From assembly GCA_947177115.1 (NCBI GenBank), contig CAMWTG010000001.1, forward strand, positions 1 through 46,386: 46,386 bases of DNA, in the 5' to 3' direction. Within the stretch, counting starts at the first letter, position 1; each line of letters opens with the position of its first letter. A program made the translations under genes and the position numbers. This stretch comes from an uncultured Clostridia bacterium (lineage in GTDB: Bacteria; Bacillota; Clostridia; Oscillospirales; Oscillospiraceae). This document shows, piece after piece, positions 42-11,374 of this stretch. Below the pieces are notes generated by a model. It was not told where the DNA came from. It made no database searches and saw only the letters and a list, made by a program, of their open reading frames with translations.

Positions 42-581
42 CTAACGGCGCACTTGGTCTTTGCTTATACCAGCCTCGTCCCCAACACGCTCAACAGATA
101 ACTTCTGTGCAACTTGCGTAGAAGTTAAATCCGTTCGTGCGCCCTGCCGTTTGATGGCCTCCAACTTCATTTTGAGGGCTTTCGCCTTTTCGATAGGCGA
201 GATATTCTCCCGCTGAATATTGGTGTCCACCATAATGATGATTGCGGCATCCCTGTCCAAATCCCGGACAATGACCGGCATGGTTTCCAAACCTACCAAT
301 TCACAGGCTCTTTTGCGCCGGTGTCCAGCCACTATCTCATAGCCGCCCTCATCCCTCGGGCGGGCAATGGCAGGGATAAGCACGCCACGCTCTTTCACAC
401 TGTCCACCGTTTCTTGCATGATTTCATCATCCCGGACAGAGAAGGGATGATCGGGAAAGGGATGCAGTTCTGCCAGAGGAATATTTTGTACCCGCTCTAA
501 TGCGGCGTCCTGTCGGCTTTCCTCCGTGGAGAACAGGTCATCTACTGATGCCAGCTCTACTTTTCTCGCGCTGCTTTTCAA
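42..581 (-). CDS. parB: ParB/Spo0J-family partition protein (ParB N-terminal domain), mobile-element type
   Basis: 179-aa ORF with ParB N-domain signatures (LHPFPDHPFSVRDD; arginine box YEIVAGHRRKRACEL). Its start overlaps the 3' end of parA by 44 nt. It ends at TAG (42-44), only 41 nt from the window edge, and the frame stays open to the edge, so it may be a shortened copy of a longer ParB. Confidence 0.8.
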   Translation of the reverse strand: MKSSARKVELASVDDLFSTEESRQDAALERVQNIPLAELHPFPDHPFSVRDDEIMQETVDSVKERGVLIPAIARPRDEGGYEIVAGHRRKRACELVGLETMPVIVRDLDRDAAIIIMVDTNIQRENISPIEKAKALKMKLEAIKRQGARTDLTSTQVAQKLSVERVGDEAGISKDQVRR

Positions 582-1359
582 TCTTCATCACCTCCTGCGT
601 CAGGCTTTTGTACGCAGCAGCTACTTTCCCTCCGGGGTCATGCGCGAAGATGCTCTTGCCCTCGGCGCTGGTTTCCTTCGCCCGGACAGAGTGAGGGATT
701 TCCGAAGAAAAGACCCTGATCTTGCTGCCATAGGTATCCCGCAGCAAGGCGGCGATTTCTTTTGCAAAGTTCGTCCGGCTGTCCACCATAGCCAGCAGGA
801 TGCCGTCTATCTGGAGTTTCGGATTGATTTGCCGCCGTACCTTTGCCACAGTCTGCAACAGCTGCTCCAGACCCTTCGCCGGAAGGTACTCCGCCTGGAC
901 AGGAATGATGATACGGTTAGCCGCAGCCAGAGCGTTGACGGTAAGCATCCCCAGGGGCGGCTGGCAGTCCAGCAGAATGTGGGTGTACTGGTTCTTCACT
1001 GTGTCCAGATATTGCCGCAGGATGGTTTCCCGGCTCATGGCGTTCACCAGAGATACCTCCATACCGGAGAGCTGGATGTCAGCGGGCATGAGGTCGATAC
1101 CCTCCGGGTGGTGCAGGATGCCCTCGCCCGGAGTGATGGGCTGGTCGTTCAGCACCTTGCCCATCATGTCCGAGAGGGTGACAGGCAGACGGTCCGGCTG
1201 GGGATTGCCCAGGCTGATGGTAAGGCTGGCCTGGGGGTCGCAATCCACCACCAGCACCTTCTTTCCGGCCTGGGCCAGACCAGCAGCCAGATTGACGCAG
1301 CTGGTGGTTTTCGTCACGCCGCCCTTCTGGTTCACAAGGGCGATTACTTGTGCGTTCAT
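538..1359 (-). CDS. parA: ParA/Soj-family partition ATPase
   Basis: 273-aa ORF with deviant Walker A VNQKGGVTKTT and VLVVDCDPQAS. SD GGAGGTG lies 7 nt upstream of the ATG at 1359. Confidence 0.92.
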   Translation of the reverse strand: MNAQVIALVNQKGGVTKTTSCVNLAAGLAQAGKKVLVVDCDPQASLTISLGNPQPDRLPVTLSDMMGKVLNDQPITPGEGILHHPEGIDLMPADIQLSGMEVSLVNAMSRETILRQYLDTVKNQYTHILLDCQPPLGMLTVNALAAANRIIIPVQAEYLPAKGLEQLLQTVAKVRRQINPKLQIDGILLAMVDSRTNFAKEIAALLRDTYGSKIRVFSSEIPHSVRAKETSAEGKSIFAHDPGGKVAAAYKSLTQEVMKIEKQREKSRAGISR

Positions 1360-1692: not shown

Positions 1693-2640
1693 TTATAGGA
1701 TTTTCTCAATCTTCCCGATGAAGTGATAATGGATTTCGATTTTCTGTGTATATAGCCGGCCACTCCTATTTGCTGGATAAACTGCGATCCAGTCGATGAA
1801 TTGCCCGACAATATCCCGCGTTAAAAACTTGATATCAGATGACCTTCCGCCTCCTTCTTAAAATGTGCGAGACCTTCCTGGAACTTCTGGGTGCCTCAAA
1901 TTCTGTCCGGATTTTTTGTTGCGCTTCTTTTAGTTGATCACGCTCCTTAAATAGAAATAGATTGCTGGCAGGACAAATTGCTCGCCATCCATCAACCCCT
2001 TTCACCTTGTCTTCATAAGCTGTAGCCAGACATAATCTGAGCTTGCTCTTGCACTTATCGATGTTCTGTTGCTGCTCTATTAGTTTCTGAATGATTACCT
2101 GCAATTCTATTGACTTTACAATTAAAAATGATAGCAAAGGCTGCTTTCACAATCTCCACAAGAAAGAACTCTGAAAAACAGTAACTGTCTCCCAGAGTTC
2201 TTCCTTGCTTTGTGCAGACCCTATCTGTATTAGATGTGTACTCAGAAAGAGCTTTCGATAATCGTTTCATATATGTCCTGTAAAATAACCATATTTTCAA
2301 CAGCAATCAGCTTGGCTTTGCCAACCAATACTTCGGGGTGAAAGGCAGTATGTACAGAAAGTCCCGAAAATTTTCTAGAAGAGAAAGCAAAAGGCATTCT
2401 CTCCGTCCAGTCCTTTTCCTATCCCAATTCTTGACCGAACAATGCCTCTTAGTCAATTTTTCGACACTCTCCGACAGGCCAATCTTTCGGCCCGTGGCTC
2501 TTTCAGAGGGGAGAACGGAGGCTCTGATAAAATCCCCCCCTACAGACGCAGCACAATGTTTTCGACCTCAGTTCAAAGCTTTTGAACGGTTCTAATCACT
2601 TTTGGCCCATAATATGCAGTCTTCAAGCGGTCACGATAAC
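1693..2640 (-). pseudogene. Decayed large serine recombinase (C-terminal part, multiple frameshifts, catalytic N-domain missing)
   Basis: Successive recombinase-like pieces lie in different minus-strand frames. They are YRDRLKTAYYG (about 2590-2640); a Zn-ribbon-like VCTKQGRTLGDSYCFSEFFLVEIV (ORF 2055-2306); a coiled-coil LATAYEDKVKG...ERDQLKEAQQKI (ORF 1835-2137); and the family-typical C-terminus KFLTRDIVGQFIDWIAVYPANRSGRLYTQKIEIHYHFIGKIEKIL-stop (1693-1857). Recognition is from memory of the family, not a search. Confidence 0.5.
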
Positions 2641-2674: not shown

Positions 2675-3520
2675 TCAGCCCGACTTCTTCAACGCGAATA
2701 GGTTAACGTTCTGCCGGATATCCGGGCTGTCAAAAAGGTCAATATAGATTTTGCAGCCATAGGCAAGCTTGACTTTGCTTTTTTCCAAAGTCCACAGCAT
2801 GATTTCTAGCAGCTCCATATAAGGGATAAACTGTTGTGGACCAATTCGGGTGATTCCCGCACCCATGAGCGGTATTGCAATTGAGCATCCATTATACTGC
2901 ATTCCAATTTCCCGCCACAAATTGAGAAGACATCCAACATAATCCTCAATCGAGAGACATGCCTGATTATCCTCGTCAAACCGAGAAAACGCCACCAGCA
3001 AATAATCGTTGTATTTAAACGCAGTACCGAGCTTATACTGAACTTTTTTCCCCACCGGTCGCTGGGAATTTTGTTTTGAAATACATCTTTGAAGGTGAGG
3101 ATCGTTTTCCAGCACGGAATCTAGTTTGCTGACTGACCCGTCCAGTTGCTTGAGGAACTTTCCGTTTATGGTATTGGAGGAAATCAGCTTATCATCGACC
3201 AGCGTGTCAAAATATTCGTTGAACGCAATTACCTTCAGAGATGATTTGTCCGCAAAAAGATCTGCATACCGGATGACTACCTCAGTTCCGCATAGGCTGA
3301 ACGACACCTCCTCTGTCTGGTTGGCTCCCCTGTAAACTCCGCAATGGAACGCCAGCAATCCCAGTACAATCACAACCAGAATCCAGCATGGCGGCGTAAC
3401 AAACGGAGATACAATGGTTACGACCAGCCCAACGCCGCCTGCAACTGCATAAACCTGGTTTAGGATTCTGCGATCAAATGGGCCAAGCCTCATATTTTGC
3501 TTTGGGTTTACAGTTCTCAT
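2675..3520 (-). CDS. 2-TM membrane protein with C-terminal ThsA-type Macro domain (Thoeris type II ThsA-like effector candidate)
   Basis: 281 aa. Two hydrophobic helices: VYAVAGGVGLVVTIVSPFV (res 23-41) and CWILVVIVLGLLAFHCGVY (res 45-63). Then a ~200-aa domain with Macro-like landmarks: IRYADLFADKSSLKVIAFNEYFDTLVDDKLISSNTINGKF and CSIAIPLMGAGITRIG (compare the macro motif SIAFPxxGxG). SD GAGGGG lies 9 nt upstream of the ATG at 3520, which is 13 nt after the stop of the upstream gene. Confidence 0.6.
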   Translation of the reverse strand: MRTVNPKQNMRLGPFDRRILNQVYAVAGGVGLVVTIVSPFVTPPCWILVVIVLGLLAFHCGVYRGANQTEEVSFSLCGTEVVIRYADLFADKSSLKVIAFNEYFDTLVDDKLISSNTINGKFLKQLDGSVSKLDSVLENDPHLQRCISKQNSQRPVGKKVQYKLGTAFKYNDYLLVAFSRFDEDNQACLSIEDYVGCLLNLWREIGMQYNGCSIAIPLMGAGITRIGPQQFIPYMELLEIMLWTLEKSKVKLAYGCKIYIDLFDSPDIRQNVNLFALKKSG

Positions 3521-3533
3521 ATATTACAGCCCC

Positions 3534-6500
3534 TCACATTGCAGCCGCTTTTTCGTGATCCGTTTTCACAGCATACTGCTTAATGGCCTTATCAATATTT
3601 TTCTGGAAAATTTGGAACGCCTTTTCTAACTCTTCATCCGCTCGCTTTTCCTCCTCCCCGCTCGCTGCCACTGCTTTATTCGTATAAAACTCCACTGTCC
3701 CATCCTGTTTTACATCAATAGCTGCGAAATTCTCCGGATCATTCAATCTTTCCAACATGAGATAGCCAATCTGATCGTCATGCAGATGGTTAATTCCTCG
3801 GTACTCATTTTTATGCCAGCCGCTTCCATCGTAGTCGTTCGTAATGCCAATAATGGTAAAGCAACATTCTGTGCGGAACAACATTTCCACATCCGAACCG
3901 GCACCTTTGGTGGAAAACAGGTCCTCATGGAATCCGTCGAACAATATTCGTTCCTCTCCATAGCGCTCCTTCAGCTTTTCGGCCAACAGCGCAACACGAG
4001 GGTCGTTGTCATGATGCTTGTAAGAGATGCCCACGTAGTACTTTCGTATTCTTCCCGTTTGAAGCGCCTCCAACTGCTCTAAAATCAGGTTGACCGCTTT
4101 CTCCGCGTCGGAGCACACGTTACCCCGAAGCGCAAGGCCCTCCTTTTGTGAAGACTCTCTGTCCTCTTGGAACTGCCACAGAGCAAACGAATTTTTGTTG
4201 TATTTCTTGGACAGTTCCCAGATACCCTTGCTACAATTGATATATCTGCCGTTGAGCAGATAGACAATCAAGCCCTCAGGCTGTTCCAGCCGAGTGAGTT
4301 GCCCCCAGGTATAGATTTGTACGGTTTTCCCCTGAATTCTCAATCCGCTCACAATCTCTGAAGCGTAGCTTGTGTGGGGAGCACTCAGATCACGGACAAG
4401 GATGACGTCCACAGGTCCGCTGGCATCCATTTTTGCAGACCTGGAGATATAATTCATCATCAGTGGCTGCAAATTTTTGCCCGCATAACCGCTTATCACC
4501 CCGTACTGATCATTCAGCAGGTTCAACAACTCCCGTCCCCACGTGATGTGCCTCTTGCCAGAACCGGTGCCCGATGTTTCAGCTAGGTATTGGGCAATAA
4601 TTCCGCAGAAATTGAACAGGCTTAAATGCAGAACGTTCTTTTCGATGGGAATGCTGGGCTTATATTTGCCCACGATAATTAACTTGATGATTGTGTCATC
4701 GTTCTGACACGCCTCATAAACATTGATGAAGTCCTGGCCCTCTTTCGTGTCCGTATCGCTAAAGTAAATCATAAGTGAACGTGCTTTGTCCTGGGTGTTG
4801 TCAAATTGGAGCAGATAGCAACTGGCACTGGTGCCTCTGTACCTGCGGCAGGTCAGATTGACTACCTTGTTCATAATGTTTTCAAATGCTCTTTCCCATG
4901 CTGCTTTGTTTTCTATCCCATCTTCAAACTGGTACATGGTCAAGAAGACATCTCGCTCATCCTGTTCCAATATCTGATCCTCACAGAGCCTCTCGAGTAG
5001 ATTTGTGAAGCTGTTTTGCAGATAGCGCTGGTCGATGGTACTGACAATCTGATCCCTCATCTCCATGGTGATCGCCTTCTCAAACTCCTCTTCCCGCGCC
5101 TCTTTCAAAAACACAATCGCATTTTCATAATCGTCCGAATGCTTCTTAGCCAACCGCCCAATTTTTAGGATGGTTTTTCGGTCCAGTGTAATAATATGAC
5201 GGTTTGCAATTGGCACTAACTCCCGCCCCATGCCGTATTTAACGCGGGTAGACAGATAGTAAAACTCGTTGGACAGTTTAGTTCCTAAACGATTCTTCGA
5301 GACGTTGATTGCTTTTGACAGTGCTTCAATCTGATAGCTACACACCTCCGCAAGTCGCTCCACATCACCAGTGATGATTACAGCCTTTGACAAGCCCGTC
5401 TCCTTTTTAATTTCTTTGACCGTCTGCCCCTTGGTCCAGTGGAGTAAGATCACAGCCCGGATGAGTGCATTGAGATTTGATGTTGTTGGGGTATCATTGC
5501 CGTTAAAAAACTCCTCCAGCGGGGAGTTTTTCCATACACCATGCTCCTTTTTATACTTGTCAAGGTATCCTAAAAGGGCGCTGACTGTATTGGTAAAACG
5601 GTCGACCCTGTACAGATTGTCCTCCGGTGCGTTGAGGTTTACACCTATTTCAACCTCTGAAGTCAGGCAGATTCGGAATAGGATGTCAAGCAGATATTTG
5701 TCGTTTTGGATCTCTTTCGCAGTCACATCGTATGGTAGACCACCATCTCCTGGAGAGGAAAGGCCATCGCACACCAGATATGTATAGATATCGAAGCATG
5801 TGTGACAAGAGAGAGCATAGGGGGACATACACTCCCCATATTTTCTCAGTTCAGCGGTCTCTGTTTGGGTAAAAGGGTTTTTTCTCAGATTCAACAACTG
5901 AGCCCGTTCCAGCCATTTCAGCATCTCTCTGACACGATCCGTAGAGCGACTTCCTTTTTCACCGGATCGGTCGTTGAGCAACGCATCTTTGGCGTTGCTC
6001 TCTGCGATTGCCTCTATCTTGCAACAATTTCCAAAGGAATGTGCCTCCACCTCTGCAAGCCGGTCGATCAATACCATATTTTGTCCGACCGCACTGAAGC
6101 GGAGATTGGTCATGATATTCAAATAATATGGTGCATGTTGCAACGCGACATCGCTATTATCTGCCTCGTAGCTTGGCAAGGACGATACGATTTCCACCTG
6201 CTCCGGAAAGACATAATAGTGCCAGCAATTGCTGATTTCTTTGGGCGAAACCAGTAAATAACTCTGACCATACGCCTTATCAAATCCAAGTCTACCCGCA
6301 CGACCGATAAAATTTTTATATTCCTGCGGCAACAGTTCATGCTCTGTGTGATCCCCGCGATAGACCGTCTTGTCATAAAGCACCATGATATCGGTAGGCA
6401 TATTCATGCCGATGGTCAAAGTCTCAGTAGCAACGATGATATTGATTGCGCCGTTGGTGTCGGAAAAGTCATTCTCAATCACCTGCCGCAAACTAACGGG

Positions 6501-7610
6501 GAGCGCGGAATTGTGAAACGCGATGCCGTAGGGCAGCATATTTTCCAGCAACTCCATCTGAAACTCATCGTTATCGACCTTCTCTACCTGTTCATAAAGA
6601 GACTTAGGCAGTTCCCGGCGCTCATACAGACCGCTTTGACACAACAGCTTTGCCAGGAATCTTGTCTTATTCCGGCTGTTGGCAAAAATAATAATTTTGC
6701 TTTGCCGGAGCTTTCCTGTGTCCTTGCGCTGGATATCCCTCATAAGACTAACAAGTAGATTGTTTTTATGCTCTGGAACAGAAGCCTGGTCGGGCAACTT
6801 ACTGTCAAGTTCGATATACGCCTCTATAGGATCGTCGACGCCATTGACGGGGGCAAGATTGGCGCTTCCACTATCCCCATGCTCCACATGCTTCCAGCCC
6901 TTCCCGTTTGTGGCAATGATATACTCCTCCAGCGCGACAGGACGCTTCGAATTGCCCAAAACATAACTGACGTTCATCCATTTTCTGAGACTGTTGACCT
7001 TCGTATGATTGGTTGTCAGCCCCATAATGCGGATGTCCTGATACCACTCCAGCACACGTTGAAGCGAGAATTCAAGCTTGGGGCCGCGACCGTTGGTGGA
7101 AAGCATCTGGATTTCGTCCACAATCAATAGTCCACACTTGTCCAATAGGCGGCTTCCATACTGGGCAATTAGTGCAAAAAACTTCTCATACACGATGATT
7201 GCAACGTCATATTCTCCCTGCACCAGATCGCCATCATGGTCTTGATAGTCCGCCGATGCGGCGAAGACCCGCTTTTCGTCCAAATCCCCGCTGAACACCT
7301 TCCAGCGCTCATGGACCATTGCCTTGAGGGGAACCAAGACAATCACTTGACTGCGATGGCCCTGATTGTGGGAAAGGCACGAGATGGCGGCAATTTCCGA
7401 TAGTAGGGTCTTACCGGAAGAGGTGGCACCCTGGATCACGATATTGGAGGTGGTATCGGACCAAAAGTTTGGGTCGTTCAGCACTTCTTTCTGCAGCGCA
7501 GTCAGTTCAAATTTTCGTGTTCCGTTATTTGAAAGACGCTGCTCAACCCGCTGCAGAGTTTCACGCGGAAGCTGGTGTGCGGTCACTAACGCTTCGAACT
7601 CAGTAATCAT
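3534..7610 (-). CDS. Ski2/Hel308-like SF2 helicase fused to a C-terminal TIR-like domain
   Basis: 1358 aa.
- Helicase motifs: I GATSSGKT (7407-7430), II LLIVDEIQ, Ski2-type block GIAFHNSALPVSLRQVIENDFSDTNGAINIIVATETLTIGMNMP, VI NFIGRAGRLG.
- Hel308 ratchet-like LNALIRAVILLHWTKGQTVKEIKKETGLSKAVIITGDVERLAEV.
- C-terminal residues ~1189-1310 (nt ~3684-4046) read as a TIR fold: YYVGISYKHHD / RVALLAEKLKERYG / ILFDGF / GAGSDVEMLFRT / CCFTIIGITNDYDGSGWHKNEYRGI.
- The ATG at 7610 overlaps the upstream stop (ATGA). Confidence 0.85.
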   Translation of the reverse strand: MITEFEALVTAHQLPRETLQRVEQRLSNNGTRKFELTALQKEVLNDPNFWSDTTSNIVIQGATSSGKTLLSEIAAISCLSHNQGHRSQVIVLVPLKAMVHERWKVFSGDLDEKRVFAASADYQDHDGDLVQGEYDVAIIVYEKFFALIAQYGSRLLDKCGLLIVDEIQMLSTNGRGPKLEFSLQRVLEWYQDIRIMGLTTNHTKVNSLRKWMNVSYVLGNSKRPVALEEYIIATNGKGWKHVEHGDSGSANLAPVNGVDDPIEAYIELDSKLPDQASVPEHKNNLLVSLMRDIQRKDTGKLRQSKIIIFANSRNKTRFLAKLLCQSGLYERRELPKSLYEQVEKVDNDEFQMELLENMLPYGIAFHNSALPVSLRQVIENDFSDTNGAINIIVATETLTIGMNMPTDIMVLYDKTVYRGDHTEHELLPQEYKNFIGRAGRLGFDKAYGQSYLLVSPKEISNCWHYYVFPEQVEIVSSLPSYEADNSDVALQHAPYYLNIMTNLRFSAVGQNMVLIDRLAEVEAHSFGNCCKIEAIAESNAKDALLNDRSGEKGSRSTDRVREMLKWLERAQLLNLRKNPFTQTETAELRKYGECMSPYALSCHTCFDIYTYLVCDGLSSPGDGGLPYDVTAKEIQNDKYLLDILFRICLTSEVEIGVNLNAPEDNLYRVDRFTNTVSALLGYLDKYKKEHGVWKNSPLEEFFNGNDTPTTSNLNALIRAVILLHWTKGQTVKEIKKETGLSKAVIITGDVERLAEVCSYQIEALSKAINVSKNRLGTKLSNEFYYLSTRVKYGMGRELVPIANRHIITLDRKTILKIGRLAKKHSDDYENAIVFLKEAREEEFEKAITMEMRDQIVSTIDQRYLQNSFTNLLERLCEDQILEQDERDVFLTMYQFEDGIENKAAWERAFENIMNKVVNLTCRRYRGTSASCYLLQFDNTQDKARSLMIYFSDTDTKEGQDFINVYEACQNDDTIIKLIIVGKYKPSIPIEKNVLHLSLFNFCGIIAQYLAETSGTGSGKRHITWGRELLNLLNDQYGVISGYAGKNLQPLMMNYISRSAKMDASGPVDVILVRDLSAPHTSYASEIVSGLRIQGKTVQIYTWGQLTRLEQPEGLIVYLLNGRYINCSKGIWELSKKYNKNSFALWQFQEDRESSQKEGLALRGNVCSDAEKAVNLILEQLEALQTGRIRKYYVGISYKHHDNDPRVALLAEKLKERYGEERILFDGFHEDLFSTKGAGSDVEMLFRTECCFTIIGITNDYDGSGWHKNEYRGINHLHDDQIGYLMLERLNDPENFAAIDVKQDGTVEFYTNKAVAASGEEEKRADEELEKAFQIFQKNIDKAIKQYAVKTDHEKAAAM

Positions 7611-10351
7611 GTGGATTCCTCATTTCCTTTTTGCATATTGTGGAGAAAGGGCTTCGCCATTTTGTCAATTTTACTTTTCCAATGCGCCGGAAGTACGGGA
7701 AGCTCTTGTAAAATGGCCCACAACTCACGTCGCTCACGCTTGGTAAGGGGCGGTTCATGACTTCGGACAAATTGGGAAAATGGAACTAATGCTGCCAAGA
7801 TGTGGCGGGTACCCGCCGGAGCCGCCTCTAGCTCCAGCAGTTGGAGAACATCCGCTGGAACTCCGTAAAAAAAGCTCTTTGACCAGTGCGTCAACGTGAC
7901 GCAGAACCCCATCGTATTCACGTTCGTATATGCGATGGCTGAGACCACCCCCAAATAGTAACTGAGCTGTTCACATAGCTTTTTGAGCAGTCCATAAGGA
8001 ATTTTAAACGCGTTATAGAGCGTTCGAATCGGAATTCCGGATGAGAAGCAGATGGACACAGCTGCCGTTGTAACCCCTCGCCGCATTATCTTATTGTGTA
8101 CATCCCAACTAGAGTTCAATTTACAATACAACGAATCAGACAAAAGTCCATTGCTTAAAAGCCCCGAGCCAAACAGTTCGTTTTCGTTCGAGGTCCAATC
8201 CCAGAACGTTGATTTTGATGCCACACAGTACTGGGAGCCGTCAAATATAGTGTTAATAATTTCTGCGATTTTACTCAGCCGACAAAGGTGATAAATCAAA
8301 TCAAACAGATAAATGCGCCCGGAGTTGACGCTGGAATCCAGACTCACTTGAACCAAGTCATATGTCTGTAAGGATTCTCCATAGCCTTTGACTACCTCGC
8401 CCGCCGTGTCCAACCGGTAGATTGGCTGGTCAGAAAGAAACAGGTCACACTCTTGCCGTAAAAGATTACGCTTCATCAGCTGATTTAGCATTTCGTCCAA
8501 ATGTTCCAAGCTCCAAGCTCCGCCGGAAAAAATCAACGCCGGCATCGCCTTCACTTCCTGCTCCAGCATTTCACGTGTTTTCTTTGCTCCCGTGCTGAAC
8601 ATATTCAGAAAATACAGTCCACATTGGTCAACATCAATTTGGCGAAGTTGACTTTGCGCCAATGGAATTTCCCTACGATTGGAAATCTTCCTCCATTCCT
8701 TAAGATGGTTTGTATTCATAATCGGATAAATATATCCTCTCTGCTCCCCACTAACACTGTTTGGCCGTAGCCTACCTGCCCGTCCAGCGCAGTTATTATA
8801 TTCATTCATCGTCATATAGCTACCGCCGTTCATCATATCCGCAATAACAACCACGTCAACGCTACTATTGATCCCGAACGCCAGCGTTTCTGTGCAGACG
8901 ACCACCTTGAACTGCCCATCCTCCTGATACAGTAATTCTTCCTCCACATATTCTCGAAACTCCTGGGGCAGGGATGCGCTGTGTATTCCGATTCCGCTTA
9001 AAATGGCCCTACAGGTGTCTTCACTGAGCACCCCATATAATTCATCCGCCATTCCGACCAAATTCATCTGTTCTAATAGCATATCCATATATGTCCGGCC
9101 CGCCGAGGGCGCAGGCGGAATCTTAAGAAGCCCGGAGTTATACAAAGAATCACACAAATTAGCGGCGATTTCATGGACTTCCGTCCGATTATTAATAAAA
9201 ATCAGAATTTTCTGACTGGACTTCAAATGTATCGCACAGATTTCAGCAATTATCTGATTTCTCCGCACCCCCAACGCAAGTGCGGTGTACGCGTCATCTC
9301 TGGCATAATAGAAGAAATCGTGCGTACAGACAACTGCTTTCAGCTGCCCTTCCGGCTTGCTCAGCTCATTCAGCACAAATTCCCGCACAATGGTCGGTAG
9401 ACAGGGGTCTAGGATGCCAATTCCCCTGCAGAGAAAGCGACTAATGGCTGGAGTAAGGGCCCGGTGCAGTTGCGAATCGTGTCCGATGCCAGCCCGAATC
9501 ATAAACTGTTCAAGGGAAATGGGAGGAAAATGCCCAGAAAATTCTGGATTCTCCAATAAAGCTCCGGCAATCTGATCCGGAGCCTCTCCGCCAAAATCGC
9601 AGATGAAAAGACGTGCTTTCCCTTCCAAATGCGCACTGCAGATTTTAGGGAATACATCATGATACCAAAATATATTACCATCTTCTTGGTATAAATAGGA
9701 TTTATTTTTGGCCCGTGCTATGGGCAACGTACTCAGAGGTACAGGACGTTTTTTGTGTTCGACATATGTAAAACCAAACTGCTGGACATAGTTCTGCCAG
9801 TCATAATATGGAGTGGAGAGGACGATGACTCGTTTTTTTGCAGAGAGTGCCGAAATCAGAAGCAGATCGATTTTTATCCCGCGCTCATTGCTGTTTACCA
9901 GCCCAACTTCATCAAAAACAATATAGTCGAAGTACTTCAAAAACGTGTCACTGCCATCAAATAAATATGCCTTTTCATAAATCATTATTACCGCATCAAA
10001 CCCACCTCGGATGACGCTGGCATCATTTTCCCTGTATTCACCTGTGGAAACCGCAATACGCTGTGAACTGTCTATCATGATATTCAGGTCATGCTGCAAC
10101 TCCCTCCCTTTCTGTGCGGCAAGGGCCCGGTACGGCACCAAATACAGCATACGCTTTGAATAATTCGACCTGTTCTGCTCCCACGCGAACAACAACAACG
10201 GGACTAGGGTCTTTCCGGACGATGTGTCGCCGCAAATCCAAAGATTTTTTTGGAGATATGCTTCTTCGCGGGAAAAAATCGCTTCCTGGAGATCTGTAAA
10301 ACGGTCATACCGCAACCGCTGGATCAAGCTAAGTATTTCACAATAACTCAT
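7607..10351 (-). CDS. Ski2/Hel308-like SF2 helicase (first gene of the operon)
   Basis: Motif I ICGDTSSGKT (10208-10231), motif II IVFDEVG, GIGIHSASLPQEFREYVEEELLYQEDGQFKVVVCTETLAFGINSSVDVVVI, and motif VI NCAGRAGR. An upstream degenerate copy of the same block is present (GIGILDPCLPTIVREFVLNELSKPEGQLKAVVCTHDF). I prefer the ATG at 10351 (MSYCEIL..., GGGGA SD-like 6-7 nt upstream). The track ORF extends to a TTG at 10603 that has no SD, and the 84 extra residues look non-protein-like. Confidence 0.85.
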   Translation of the reverse strand: MSYCEILSLIQRLRYDRFTDLQEAIFSREEAYLQKNLWICGDTSSGKTLVPLLLFAWEQNRSNYSKRMLYLVPYRALAAQKGRELQHDLNIMIDSSQRIAVSTGEYRENDASVIRGGFDAVIMIYEKAYLFDGSDTFLKYFDYIVFDEVGLVNSNERGIKIDLLLISALSAKKRVIVLSTPYYDWQNYVQQFGFTYVEHKKRPVPLSTLPIARAKNKSYLYQEDGNIFWYHDVFPKICSAHLEGKARLFICDFGGEAPDQIAGALLENPEFSGHFPPISLEQFMIRAGIGHDSQLHRALTPAISRFLCRGIGILDPCLPTIVREFVLNELSKPEGQLKAVVCTHDFFYYARDDAYTALALGVRRNQIIAEICAIHLKSSQKILIFINNRTEVHEIAANLCDSLYNSGLLKIPPAPSAGRTYMDMLLEQMNLVGMADELYGVLSEDTCRAILSGIGIHSASLPQEFREYVEEELLYQEDGQFKVVVCTETLAFGINSSVDVVVIADMMNGGSYMTMNEYNNCAGRAGRLRPNSVSGEQRGYIYPIMNTNHLKEWRKISNRREIPLAQSQLRQIDVDQCGLYFLNMFSTGAKKTREMLEQEVKAMPALIFSGGAWSLEHLDEMLNQLMKRNLLRQECDLFLSDQPIYRLDTAGEVVKGYGESLQTYDLVQVSLDSSVNSGRIYLFDLIYHLCRLSKIAEIINTIFDGSQYCVASKSTFWDWTSNENELFGSGLLSNGLLSDSLYCKLNSSWDVHNKIMRRGVTTAAVSICFSSGIPIRTLYNAFKIPYGLLKKLCEQLSYYLGVVSAIAYTNVNTMGFCVTLTHWSKSFFYGVPADVLQLLELEAAPAGTRHILAALVPFSQFVRSHEPPLTKRERRELWAILQELPVLPAHWKSKIDKMAKPFLHNMQKGNEEST

Positions 10352-10626
10352 ACAAACATCCCCAATCAAGTGCAGGATAAGCAATGGAGTGCAAGGAGGA
10401 TTTGGACCTGTTTGAATCTTAGCAATATGCTCAACTGAGAGATTTTTTTGCCGAATGACGCAGTTTGATGCAAAAATATCATGTATATTTCCAGTCAAAA
10501 CATCGAAATGTTGAGGAAGAAGGACTGCGGATTGAGCTTGTTGACATTTAAACAAGCCATGGAACTTGTTGATTAGTATATACCCAATTTCAACAAATTT
10601 CAACTAAAACGATGCAAAATTTTGGT

Positions 10627-10802: not shown

Positions 10803-10930
10803 AGAAAAAGCACTCTATCGTTGGAACATTCTCAAAATTCAGTTTTTGGTGTAAATACTGCTGCTTGACTGCCCGCAAACCGTTGATATCACTGAATTTT
10901 TCGGTAAATCCTATATCGCCACTCGGACCA
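10803..10930. repeat. Direct repeat copy B (same orientation as copy A, upstream of the helicase operon)
   Basis: See copy A. It ends at 10930 with the identical 34-nt terminus and is directly fused to the integrase 3' fragment. Confidence 0.85.
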
Positions 10931-11179
10931 TTGGCGATGACAGTAAATCTCCACAAGAAGATCCTGCAGGATGCCGGACTGGAGCACATCCCCTTCCATG
11001 CGTTGAGACACACCTTCGCCACCACCGCCCTCCAAACCAGTATAGATGTGAAAACAGTCTCCAGTATGCTGGGCTACTACTCCGCAGGCTTCACATTGAC
11101 CACTTACGCCCACGCCACCGCCCGGATGCAGGAGGAAGCCGCCAGCAGGATGGGCAGCTACATGGCGCAGAATCTGTAG
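10931..11179 (+). pseudogene. Tyrosine recombinase/integrase, C-terminal ~80-aa fragment only
   Basis: ...LHKKILQDAGLEHIPFHALRHTFATTALQTSIDVKTVSSMLGYYSAGFTLTTYAHATARMQEEAA... carries the HxLRH box and the catalytic Tyr context (TYAH). Everything N-terminal to this is replaced by repeat copy B at 10930. The track ORF 10865-11179 begins at a TTG inside the repeat. Confidence 0.75.
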
Positions 11180-11298: not shown

Positions 11299-11374
11299 TG
11301 GAGCTGGAAATCAGACTCGAACTGACGACCTGCTGATTACGAATCAGCTGCTCTACCAACTGAGCTATTCCAGC
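11299..11374 (-). tRNA. tRNA-Thr (anticodon CGU), CCA encoded
   Basis: Hand-folded cloverleaf: acceptor GCTGGAA/TTCCAGC, D arm GCTC-AGTTGGTA-GAGC, anticodon arm GCTGA-TTCGTAA-TCAGC (CGT), variable AGGTC, T arm GTCAG-TTCGAGT-CTGAT, discriminator T plus CCA. 76 nt. Confidence 0.9.

Follow-up and report, generated by a model that had tools for sequence, protein, structure and literature searches.

In a 46,386-nt stretch of DNA from an uncultured Clostridia bacterium (Oscillospiraceae; GenBank assembly GCA_947177115.1, contig CAMWTG010000001.1, positions 1 to 46,386), referred to in its entirety as the window below, we analyzed three adjacent genes named helA, helB and thsA-like. By analogy with characterized systems, and with moderate confidence, we read them as a three-gene anti-phage operon in which Thoeris-type signaling would be combined with a helicase sensor, i.e. 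as a probable new Thoeris variant. The first two genes encode Ski2/Hel308-like helicases of superfamily 2 (SF2), the second of which is fused to a predicted C-terminal TIR domain, and the third gene encodes a putative effector with two transmembrane (TM) helices and a Macro domain. This architecture had first been proposed from the bare sequence, in what is here called the original prediction.

The three genes are co-directional on the minus strand, as originally read, and were found as open reading frames (ORFs) at 2675-3520 (the thsA-like gene, 281 aa), 3534-7610 (helB, 1358 aa) and 7607-10603. The last of these holds helA, for which lengths of both 914 and 998 aa had been put forward. The frame is indeed open to 10603, giving 998 aa if read from an upstream TTG, but the start is most likely the ATG at 10351 (helA at 7607-10351, 914 aa), since homologues are 744-907 aa long and, in the 914-aa form, residue 21 is where the conserved Q-motif starts. 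The 84 open codons situated 5' of this ATG (10352-10603, back to the TTG) are probably a 5' untranslated region and not coding, given the promoter-like TTGAAA-17-TATACT found upstream of helA at 10575-10603 on the minus strand; this is weak evidence, and counts of such sites were no higher than in shuffled controls. Both of the gene junctions that had been described can be read in the sequence. The helA and helB genes share an ATGA stop/start overlap at 7607-7610 (minus strand), a configuration of translational coupling, while the TGA stop codon of helB is followed by a spacer of 13 nt (ggggctgtaatat; 3521-3533, minus strand) and then by the ATG of the thsA-like gene, with a GAGGGG Shine-Dalgarno sequence situated across the helB stop codon. 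No further intact ORF was found between the two 99-nt direct repeats that flank the three genes and are treated below.

Four independent lines of evidence, from sequence comparison and structure modeling, establish the C-terminal ~170 aa of HelB as a predicted TIR domain (residues about 1187-1320; 3651-4052, minus strand), identified by structure, profile and sequence searches alike, with a long C-terminal helix behind it (residues about 1321-1358; 3537-3650, minus strand; residues 140-179 of the modeled fragment). An AlphaFold2 (AF2) model covering residues 1179-1358, for which 29 trimmed tails of homologues were used, reached a predicted local distance difference test (pLDDT) score of 82, and TIR domains made up nearly all of its top ~44 Foldseek matches in the PDB, e.g. 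the TIR domain of TLR10 (TM-score 0.71, E=4e-4), AbTir, MyD88, RUN1, the SPARTA TIR and a B. cereus TIR. With a 384-residue multi-domain model, the TIR matches were diluted by two-domain matches to sugar-isomerase-like proteins and carbamoyltransferases. When a profile of the family was compared with the PDB, plant TIR domains came first (RUN1, SNC1 and RPV1; E=0.0038 for RUN1), and the C..E motif of the profile, which includes E1269, was aligned with the catalytic-Glu motif WCLDE of RUN1. An exhaustive phmmer search with HelB residues 880-1358 against 1.84 billion representative proteins furthermore returned 24 proteins from outside the family, all matching residues about 1186-1314 only, with E-values down to 3e-8. 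Pfam assigns TIR_2 to each of the ten best of these, and it is within their TIR domain that the match is located. In a related clade, HelB ends at about 1159 aa and the next gene, a separate one of 145 aa, has a Pfam TIR_2 domain. A hidden Markov model (HMM) of 89 HelB tails, compared with the stand-alone TIR of locus L011, had its motifs in register with it at insignificant scores. The predicted catalytic Glu1269 (codon 3804-3806) is part of GWHKNEY, a motif already pointed out in the original prediction, and is invariant in 89 homologues together with G1194 and S1196 of the beta-A motif GISY.

By its sequence, the 281-aa product of the thsA-like gene belongs over its full length to the effector family of type II Thoeris, its two TM helices being followed by a Macro domain of the ThsA type, as had first been interpreted (the ThsA of type II Thoeris was renamed ThsC in the 2025 nomenclature). 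It was matched by Pfam ThsA_Macro (PF20016) at E=1.3e-48, by the PADLOC ThsA model PDLC00413 at E=1.1e-74 over residues 12-279, and by the solved Macro domain of E. coli ThsA (8v6q) at E=1e-44. The two TM helices (residues about 19-66; 3323-3466, minus strand) are predicted from hydropathy, with 19-residue windows above 1.6 starting at residues 19-48, and the Macro domain (residues 81-259; 2744-3280, minus strand) is delimited by the Pfam and 8v6q matches. The 8v6q alignment was mapped by hand onto the E. coli ThsA (EcThsA) numbering of Shi et al. 2024 (PMC11204291), which covered ten positions that either line the cleft for ADP-ribose (ADPR) or are structural. Six are identical, i.e. D83, D100, N114, S175, G218 and T220 of EcThsA correspond to D87, D105, N119, S179, G222 and T224 of the effector, and L113 is conservatively replaced by I118; the cleft is therefore largely, not wholly, conserved.

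The two helicases are, according to their profile matches, Ski2/Hel308-like as had been claimed, yet not orthologues of Hel308: in NCBIfam, only sub-threshold matches to the Hel308 equivalog were obtained, at 143 bits as compared with a cut-off of 1200 bits. HelA contains the Pfam domains DEAD (2.6e-15) and Helicase_C (4.6e-8), and its best PDB matches are Hel308 and Ski2. The RecA1/RecA2 core of HelB (residues 34-480; 6171-7511, minus strand), delimited by Pfam and PDB matches, has DEAD (8.9e-18), Helicase_C (1e-8) and ResIII domains and resembles ASCC3 (2e-32), Hel308 (about 1e-30) and Brr2 (1e-28) among solved structures. HelA and HelB are 23% identical to each other across the core. Both are probably active enzymes, to judge from their motifs. 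Across 60 HelA homologues, the Q-motif, Walker A (G41..K47 T48), DE (147-148) and GRAGR (523-527) show a conservation of at least 95%, and in HelB, G61, T63, G66, K67 and T68 of the Walker A GATSSGKT (the second motif noted at the outset; K67 codon at 7410-7412) as well as other ATPase motifs are invariant in 120 homologues. The core of HelB is followed by a Hel308-type accessory region (residues 481-880; 4971-6170, minus strand), which probably consists of winged-helix and ratchet domains. It is recognized by a weak Pfam match to Helicase_dom4_arc (residues 705-793, E=0.0037) and by conservation, with many near-invariant positions as far as L871 in the 120 homologues.

Between the accessory region and the TIR domain, HelB has a middle alpha/beta region (residues 881-1186; 4053-4970, minus strand), visible as alpha/beta domains in an AF2 model of residues 975-1358 (pLDDT 84). 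The region is kept in the TIR-tailed relatives, as detected with an HMM made for it, and is a candidate regulatory or linker module. The idea of a tandem TIR was dropped because hhalign found no profile similarity between the two middle alpha/beta domains and the TIR domain.

Relatives of the operon were surveyed in species-representative genomes and metagenomes, with the loci annotated by local HMMs. Among the best 120 HelB homologues, 89 are TIR-tailed and 15 end in a protein kinase, while 12 are tail-less (about 1159 aa) and 4 truncated or unclassified. The gene immediately upstream of helB was helA in every locus examined, and the pair recurs in about 60 loci. Named hosts all belong to the Clostridia (Lachnospiraceae, Oscillospiraceae, Ruminococcus, Faecalibacterium and Gemmiger) or the Negativicutes (Selenomonadaceae and Quinella), and the family has a patchy distribution in these surveyed genomes and metagenomes, being confined to scattered gut and rumen Firmicutes. 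Neither a megablast search of plasmids with the cassette nor a tblastn search of plasmids and phages with HelB residues 704-1358 gave a match.

A TM-Macro gene is located downstream of helB-TIR in the window and in loci L001-L006, L017, L022, L039, L040 and L107, and upstream of helA in L093 and L097. These loci are distributed over at least four deep clades of a neighbor-joining tree. Their contexts are unrelated, e.g. the P0002 loci (49% identity) adjoin a serine recombinase, and the P0004 loci (34% identity) are situated between a ribose ABC operon and UDG. The co-conservation of the trio, which the original prediction had proposed to check, was thus found in relatives as divergent as 34-49% identity. 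No stand-alone TIR gene was present in L001-L006.

Other partners take the place of the TM-Macro gene in other lineages. One lineage (L015:495-2330, L032:3521-5356, L094 and L095) has a 611-aa protein encoded directly upstream of helA, with Pfam TIR_2 and SLOG/STALD matches at 1.5e-9 and 7e-5 to 8e-5, respectively, and a C-terminus that resembles the SLOG domain of type I ThsA (8wc0, E=1.3e-3). This likeness implies a messenger of the cyclic ADP-ribose (cADPR) type, and the lineage may hold a cADPR-type version of the helicase-TIR sensor seen in the window. The exchange of Macro for TIR-SLOG in a sister lineage is effector swapping of a kind typical of signaling systems. A 616-aa protein is yet another third gene, found in interleaved lineages. 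In the kinase-tailed HelB clade (L007:4190-12155, L013, L014, L016 and L096), a Ser/Thr kinase similar to the PADLOC PD-T4-6 type replaces the TIR domain, and a 530-aa gene and then helA always precede helB.

A 507-aa family adjoins helA/helB-TIR, either upstream or downstream, in a distinct clade (L028:7245-8768, L030, L105, L108 and L112), and is a candidate for a new effector or receptor. Pfam and PDB searches gave nothing usable for the 507-aa, 616-aa and 530-aa partners. Large proteins of 1119-1429 aa are encoded just upstream of helA/helB-TIR in L020 (2326-6297), L030 (3635-7924) and L051 (707-4066). All three carry a protein-kinase domain, and those of L020 and L051 also a Card1-like endonuclease domain; each could be one more partner or a defense gene that adjoins the locus. 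Kinase-like matches were also seen near L099, L108 and L112.

The mechanism that we propose would begin with HelA and HelB surveying nucleic acid, probably as a heterodimer, since the two are translationally coupled and always adjacent. They would engage a DNA or RNA structure specific to infection, and this would release or cluster the C-terminal TIR domain of HelB. With its invariant Glu1269, the TIR domain would then convert NAD+ into an ADPR-derived messenger, most likely one known from type II Thoeris, histidine-ADPR (His-ADPR) or ADPR/IAD. The messenger would be bound by the Macro domain of the two-TM effector, which would oligomerize and damage the membrane, so that the cell is arrested or killed before phage release. 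The sensing step is modeled on HamB of the Hachiman system, and the steps from TIR to membrane on type II Thoeris; a physical contact of the two helicases is, like the gating step, purely inferred. Support for the signaling model comes from the recurrence of Macro and SLOG proteins as interchangeable partners, and from a linkage that survives changes in gene order and has an operon-like spacing. To our knowledge, these two partner types are known solely as receptors of TIR products.

Among the models and papers searched, no described system covers this assembly. As the original prediction had supposed, there is no model for helA-helB-Macro in PADLOC v2.0.0, Pfam or NCBIfam, and the searchable full-text literature up to September 2026 contains no description of a helicase-linked Thoeris, a helicase-TIR fusion, a helicase combined with STALD or a matching Hel308/Ski2 defense system. 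A systematic TIR survey comprising Thoeris types I-XI and 29 putative types likewise contains no helicase-linked Thoeris. Each of the computable tests that had been named beforehand as able to count against the proposal, i.e. for a missing TIR-like or Macro fold, a match to a named system or a lack of co-conservation, came out in its favor.

The closest comparison is type II Thoeris, in which a TIR protein makes His-ADPR, the Macro domain binds it and a membrane pore forms (bioRxiv 10.64898/2025.12.03.692087). The window shares with it the effector, which has the two TM helices and the ThsA-type Macro domain and is matched over its full length by PADLOC and Pfam, and a TIR domain with a conserved catalytic Glu that is encoded immediately upstream in the same operon. 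Unlike in type II Thoeris, however, this TIR domain is not a stand-alone ThsB but the C-terminus of a 1358-aa protein, joined to 1180 aa of helicase and without a ThsB HMM match, and the system is not a two-component one, as the second helicase gene helA is invariably found upstream of helB. Known Thoeris systems have no helicase described. By profile matching, then, the effector belongs to type II Thoeris, but the system as a whole does not. In type I Thoeris (ThsB and a SIR2-SLOG ThsA), the likeness is with the partner in L015, L032, L094 and L095, whose SLOG/STALD domain resembles the ThsA SLOG; unlike ThsA, this partner has TIR_2 in place of SIR2, and it is absent from the window.

Hachiman is similar in that infection is presumably sensed by a Ski2/Hel308-like helicase, to which a toxic output is coupled; its Ski2-like HamB is reported to sense DNA damage and to release HamA (PMC12278908). 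It differs in having one helicase and a nuclease, whereas the window has two helicases and a TIR and Macro membrane effector output. HamB models were, together with PDC-M23B, the best PADLOC matches of the helicases (E about 1e-24), over segments of the RecA core only, and none of the three operon proteins matched HamA (DUF1837). Membership of PDC-M23 was considered as well, PDC-M23B matching at model positions 276-736 of 1060 only (E=4e-25). Since the similarity does not go beyond the helicase core, membership of Hachiman and of PDC-M23 was rejected.

In SPARTA (TIR-APAZ/pAgo), Avs/STAND-TIR and the TIR effectors of CBASS, too, TIR is linked covalently or tightly to a sensor of nucleic acid or an NTPase sensor, and there it serves as the NADase effector. 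Those systems have no downstream signal receptor, whereas a Macro (or SLOG) receptor-effector is linked here. Among the proteins of solved structure, the dual-cassette Ski2-like helicases Brr2, ASCC3 and Slh1 as well as Hel308 are the best matches of HelB, and the joint use of two Hel308-type cassettes is a further likeness. The window differs in that its cassettes are separate genes, only 23% identical to each other, that both keep their ATPase motifs, and in that the helicases are bacterial, are located on a mobile element and belong, in the case of HelB, to a family fused to TIR or kinase.

A number of observations weigh against the proposed signaling system. The isolated HelB tail was recognized by Pfam TIR_2 at E=0.089 only and by Pfam ThsB_TIR not at all, no PADLOC ThsB match was obtained with either the whole of HelB or the isolated tail, and the Foldseek E-values, though the matches are consistent, are modest (4e-4 at best). 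In the Macro cleft, three of the ten mapped positions are changed, EcThsA S217, H259 and K262 corresponding to A221, F263 and I268 in the effector. Most helB-TIR loci are without a Macro gene, at least nine with complete flanks have no recognizable receptor or effector gene, and in other clades the tail is a kinase, or the TIR is split off as a protein of its own. All this would also fit a C-terminal domain that is a terminal effector and not a signal generator.

These last points are the strength of what we regard as the main competing explanation, in itself unlikely, namely that the helicase sensor would activate the TIR domain as a terminal NADase that depletes NAD+, much as in the sensor-NADase fusions SPARTA and Avs-TIR, with the TM-Macro protein as an optional add-on responding to ADPR as a by-product. 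The kinase tail or split TIR_2 of the sister clades, found without a receptor, would then be effector-like modularity, and plain ADPR is also bound by ThsA Macro domains (PMC11204291). Such an add-on is harder to reconcile with a TM-Macro gene that has been kept or gained in at least four deep clades and in two gene orders, with the TIR-SLOG partner of another lineage, and with the 13-nt spacer by which the Macro gene of the window is tightly coupled to helB. Messenger signaling thus remains the reading that we prefer for the window, while in the relatives without a Macro gene the TIR domain may act as a direct NADase.

We consider it very improbable that the locus is non-immune, with the helicases serving DNA repair, replication restart or element maintenance and the TIR and Macro domains controlling NAD/ADP-ribose metabolism or constituting an addiction module. 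The Hel308 family to which NCBIfam points consists of repair helicases, and the mobile element that carries the locus also has ParAB and remnants of recombinases; the score of 143 bits is nevertheless far under the 1200-bit equivalog cut-off, the distribution is patchy and limited to scattered gut and rumen Firmicutes, and the fusion to TIR or kinase together with linkage to a Thoeris effector are hallmarks of defense. Slightly less probable still is a chance adjacency of a HelA/HelB system and an orphan type II Thoeris effector that lost its ThsB, for although defense genes cluster in islands and ThsB models do not recognize the HelB TIR, the same neighbors are found again in several clades and in unrelated surroundings, at identities of 34-49% and without a separate TIR gene close by, the spacing is operon-like, and the helicase bears a TIR of its own.

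The surroundings of the operon are those of a mobile element. As first noted, the genes are located in an AT-richer island amid mobile-element debris, with a GC content of 0.43-0.50 over 2-11 kb as compared with about 0.55-0.65 in most of the remaining window. On the left, parB (42-581, minus strand) and parA (538-1359, minus strand) are part of the surrounding element, and a DUF4368 fragment (about 1693-1833, minus strand), left over from the C-terminal end of a large serine recombinase, was identified by a Pfam match on a 46-aa gene of L173, a contig of the same strain, from which the coordinates were converted. On the right, the C-terminal fragment of a tyrosine integrase (10865-11179, plus strand) matches Pfam Phage_integrase at model positions 115-170 of 172 (E=3.8e-10), and adjoins a tRNA-Thr (CGU) gene (11299-11374, minus strand) that is the likely integration site. 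With the tRNA gene and truncated integrase on one side and ParA, ParB and DUF4368 on the other, the operon sits in a decayed integrative element that runs past the left end of the window.

Within this element, the cassette is bracketed by the two copies of the 99-nt direct repeat (1472-1570 and 10832-10930, both on the plus strand), which are 85% identical, the final 34 nt being identical. Within the 10865-11179 ORF, the Phage_integrase match starts at about 10955, some 25 nt past the end of the right copy, and the repeat may be a trace left by cassette insertion or recombination within an integrase gene. No further copies were found in the other loci, with the exception of L173. An Rfam search of 1-12 kb returned tRNA-Thr alone and left the repeat unmatched, so that it does not correspond to a known RNA.

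In L001-L003, upstream of helA, and in L011, the helicase cassettes are bordered by large serine recombinases that are intact, which fits the DUF4368 remnant of the window. Serine recombinases were reported in 2025 to mark defense loci (PMC12632615), without mention of helicases or Thoeris.

Little is known of how the TIR proteins of Thoeris detect an infection, and for type II, a 2026 preprint explicitly calls the sensed feature unknown (bioRxiv 10.64898/2026.06.04.730250). Here, the helicase to which the TIR domain is covalently joined is ATP-dependent and Hel308-like and has a second helicase at its side, and a nucleic-acid trigger is therefore predicted. Divergent TIR domains buried in large proteins are furthermore overlooked by HMM-based surveys, and since the HelB tail reached E=0.089 only in Pfam and had no PADLOC ThsB match, Thoeris-like signaling may be under-counted.

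Lastly, and more tentatively, as we would put it at somewhat less than an even chance, HelA and HelB may stand for a hitherto undescribed family in which Hel308-like immune helicases of gut Firmicutes work in pairs, sense phage nucleic acid and are wired to different outputs, i.e. a TIR messenger combined with TM-Macro, TIR-SLOG, 507-aa or 616-aa partners, a fused kinase, or a split TIR. The version in the window would then be the first Thoeris system with a trigger read by a helicase, and through it the activation of a TIR signal generator could be approached directly by experiment. The wider helA/helB family itself, modular in its outputs and concentrated in poorly studied anaerobes of the gut and rumen, is a compact natural experiment in how sensors and effectors combine.

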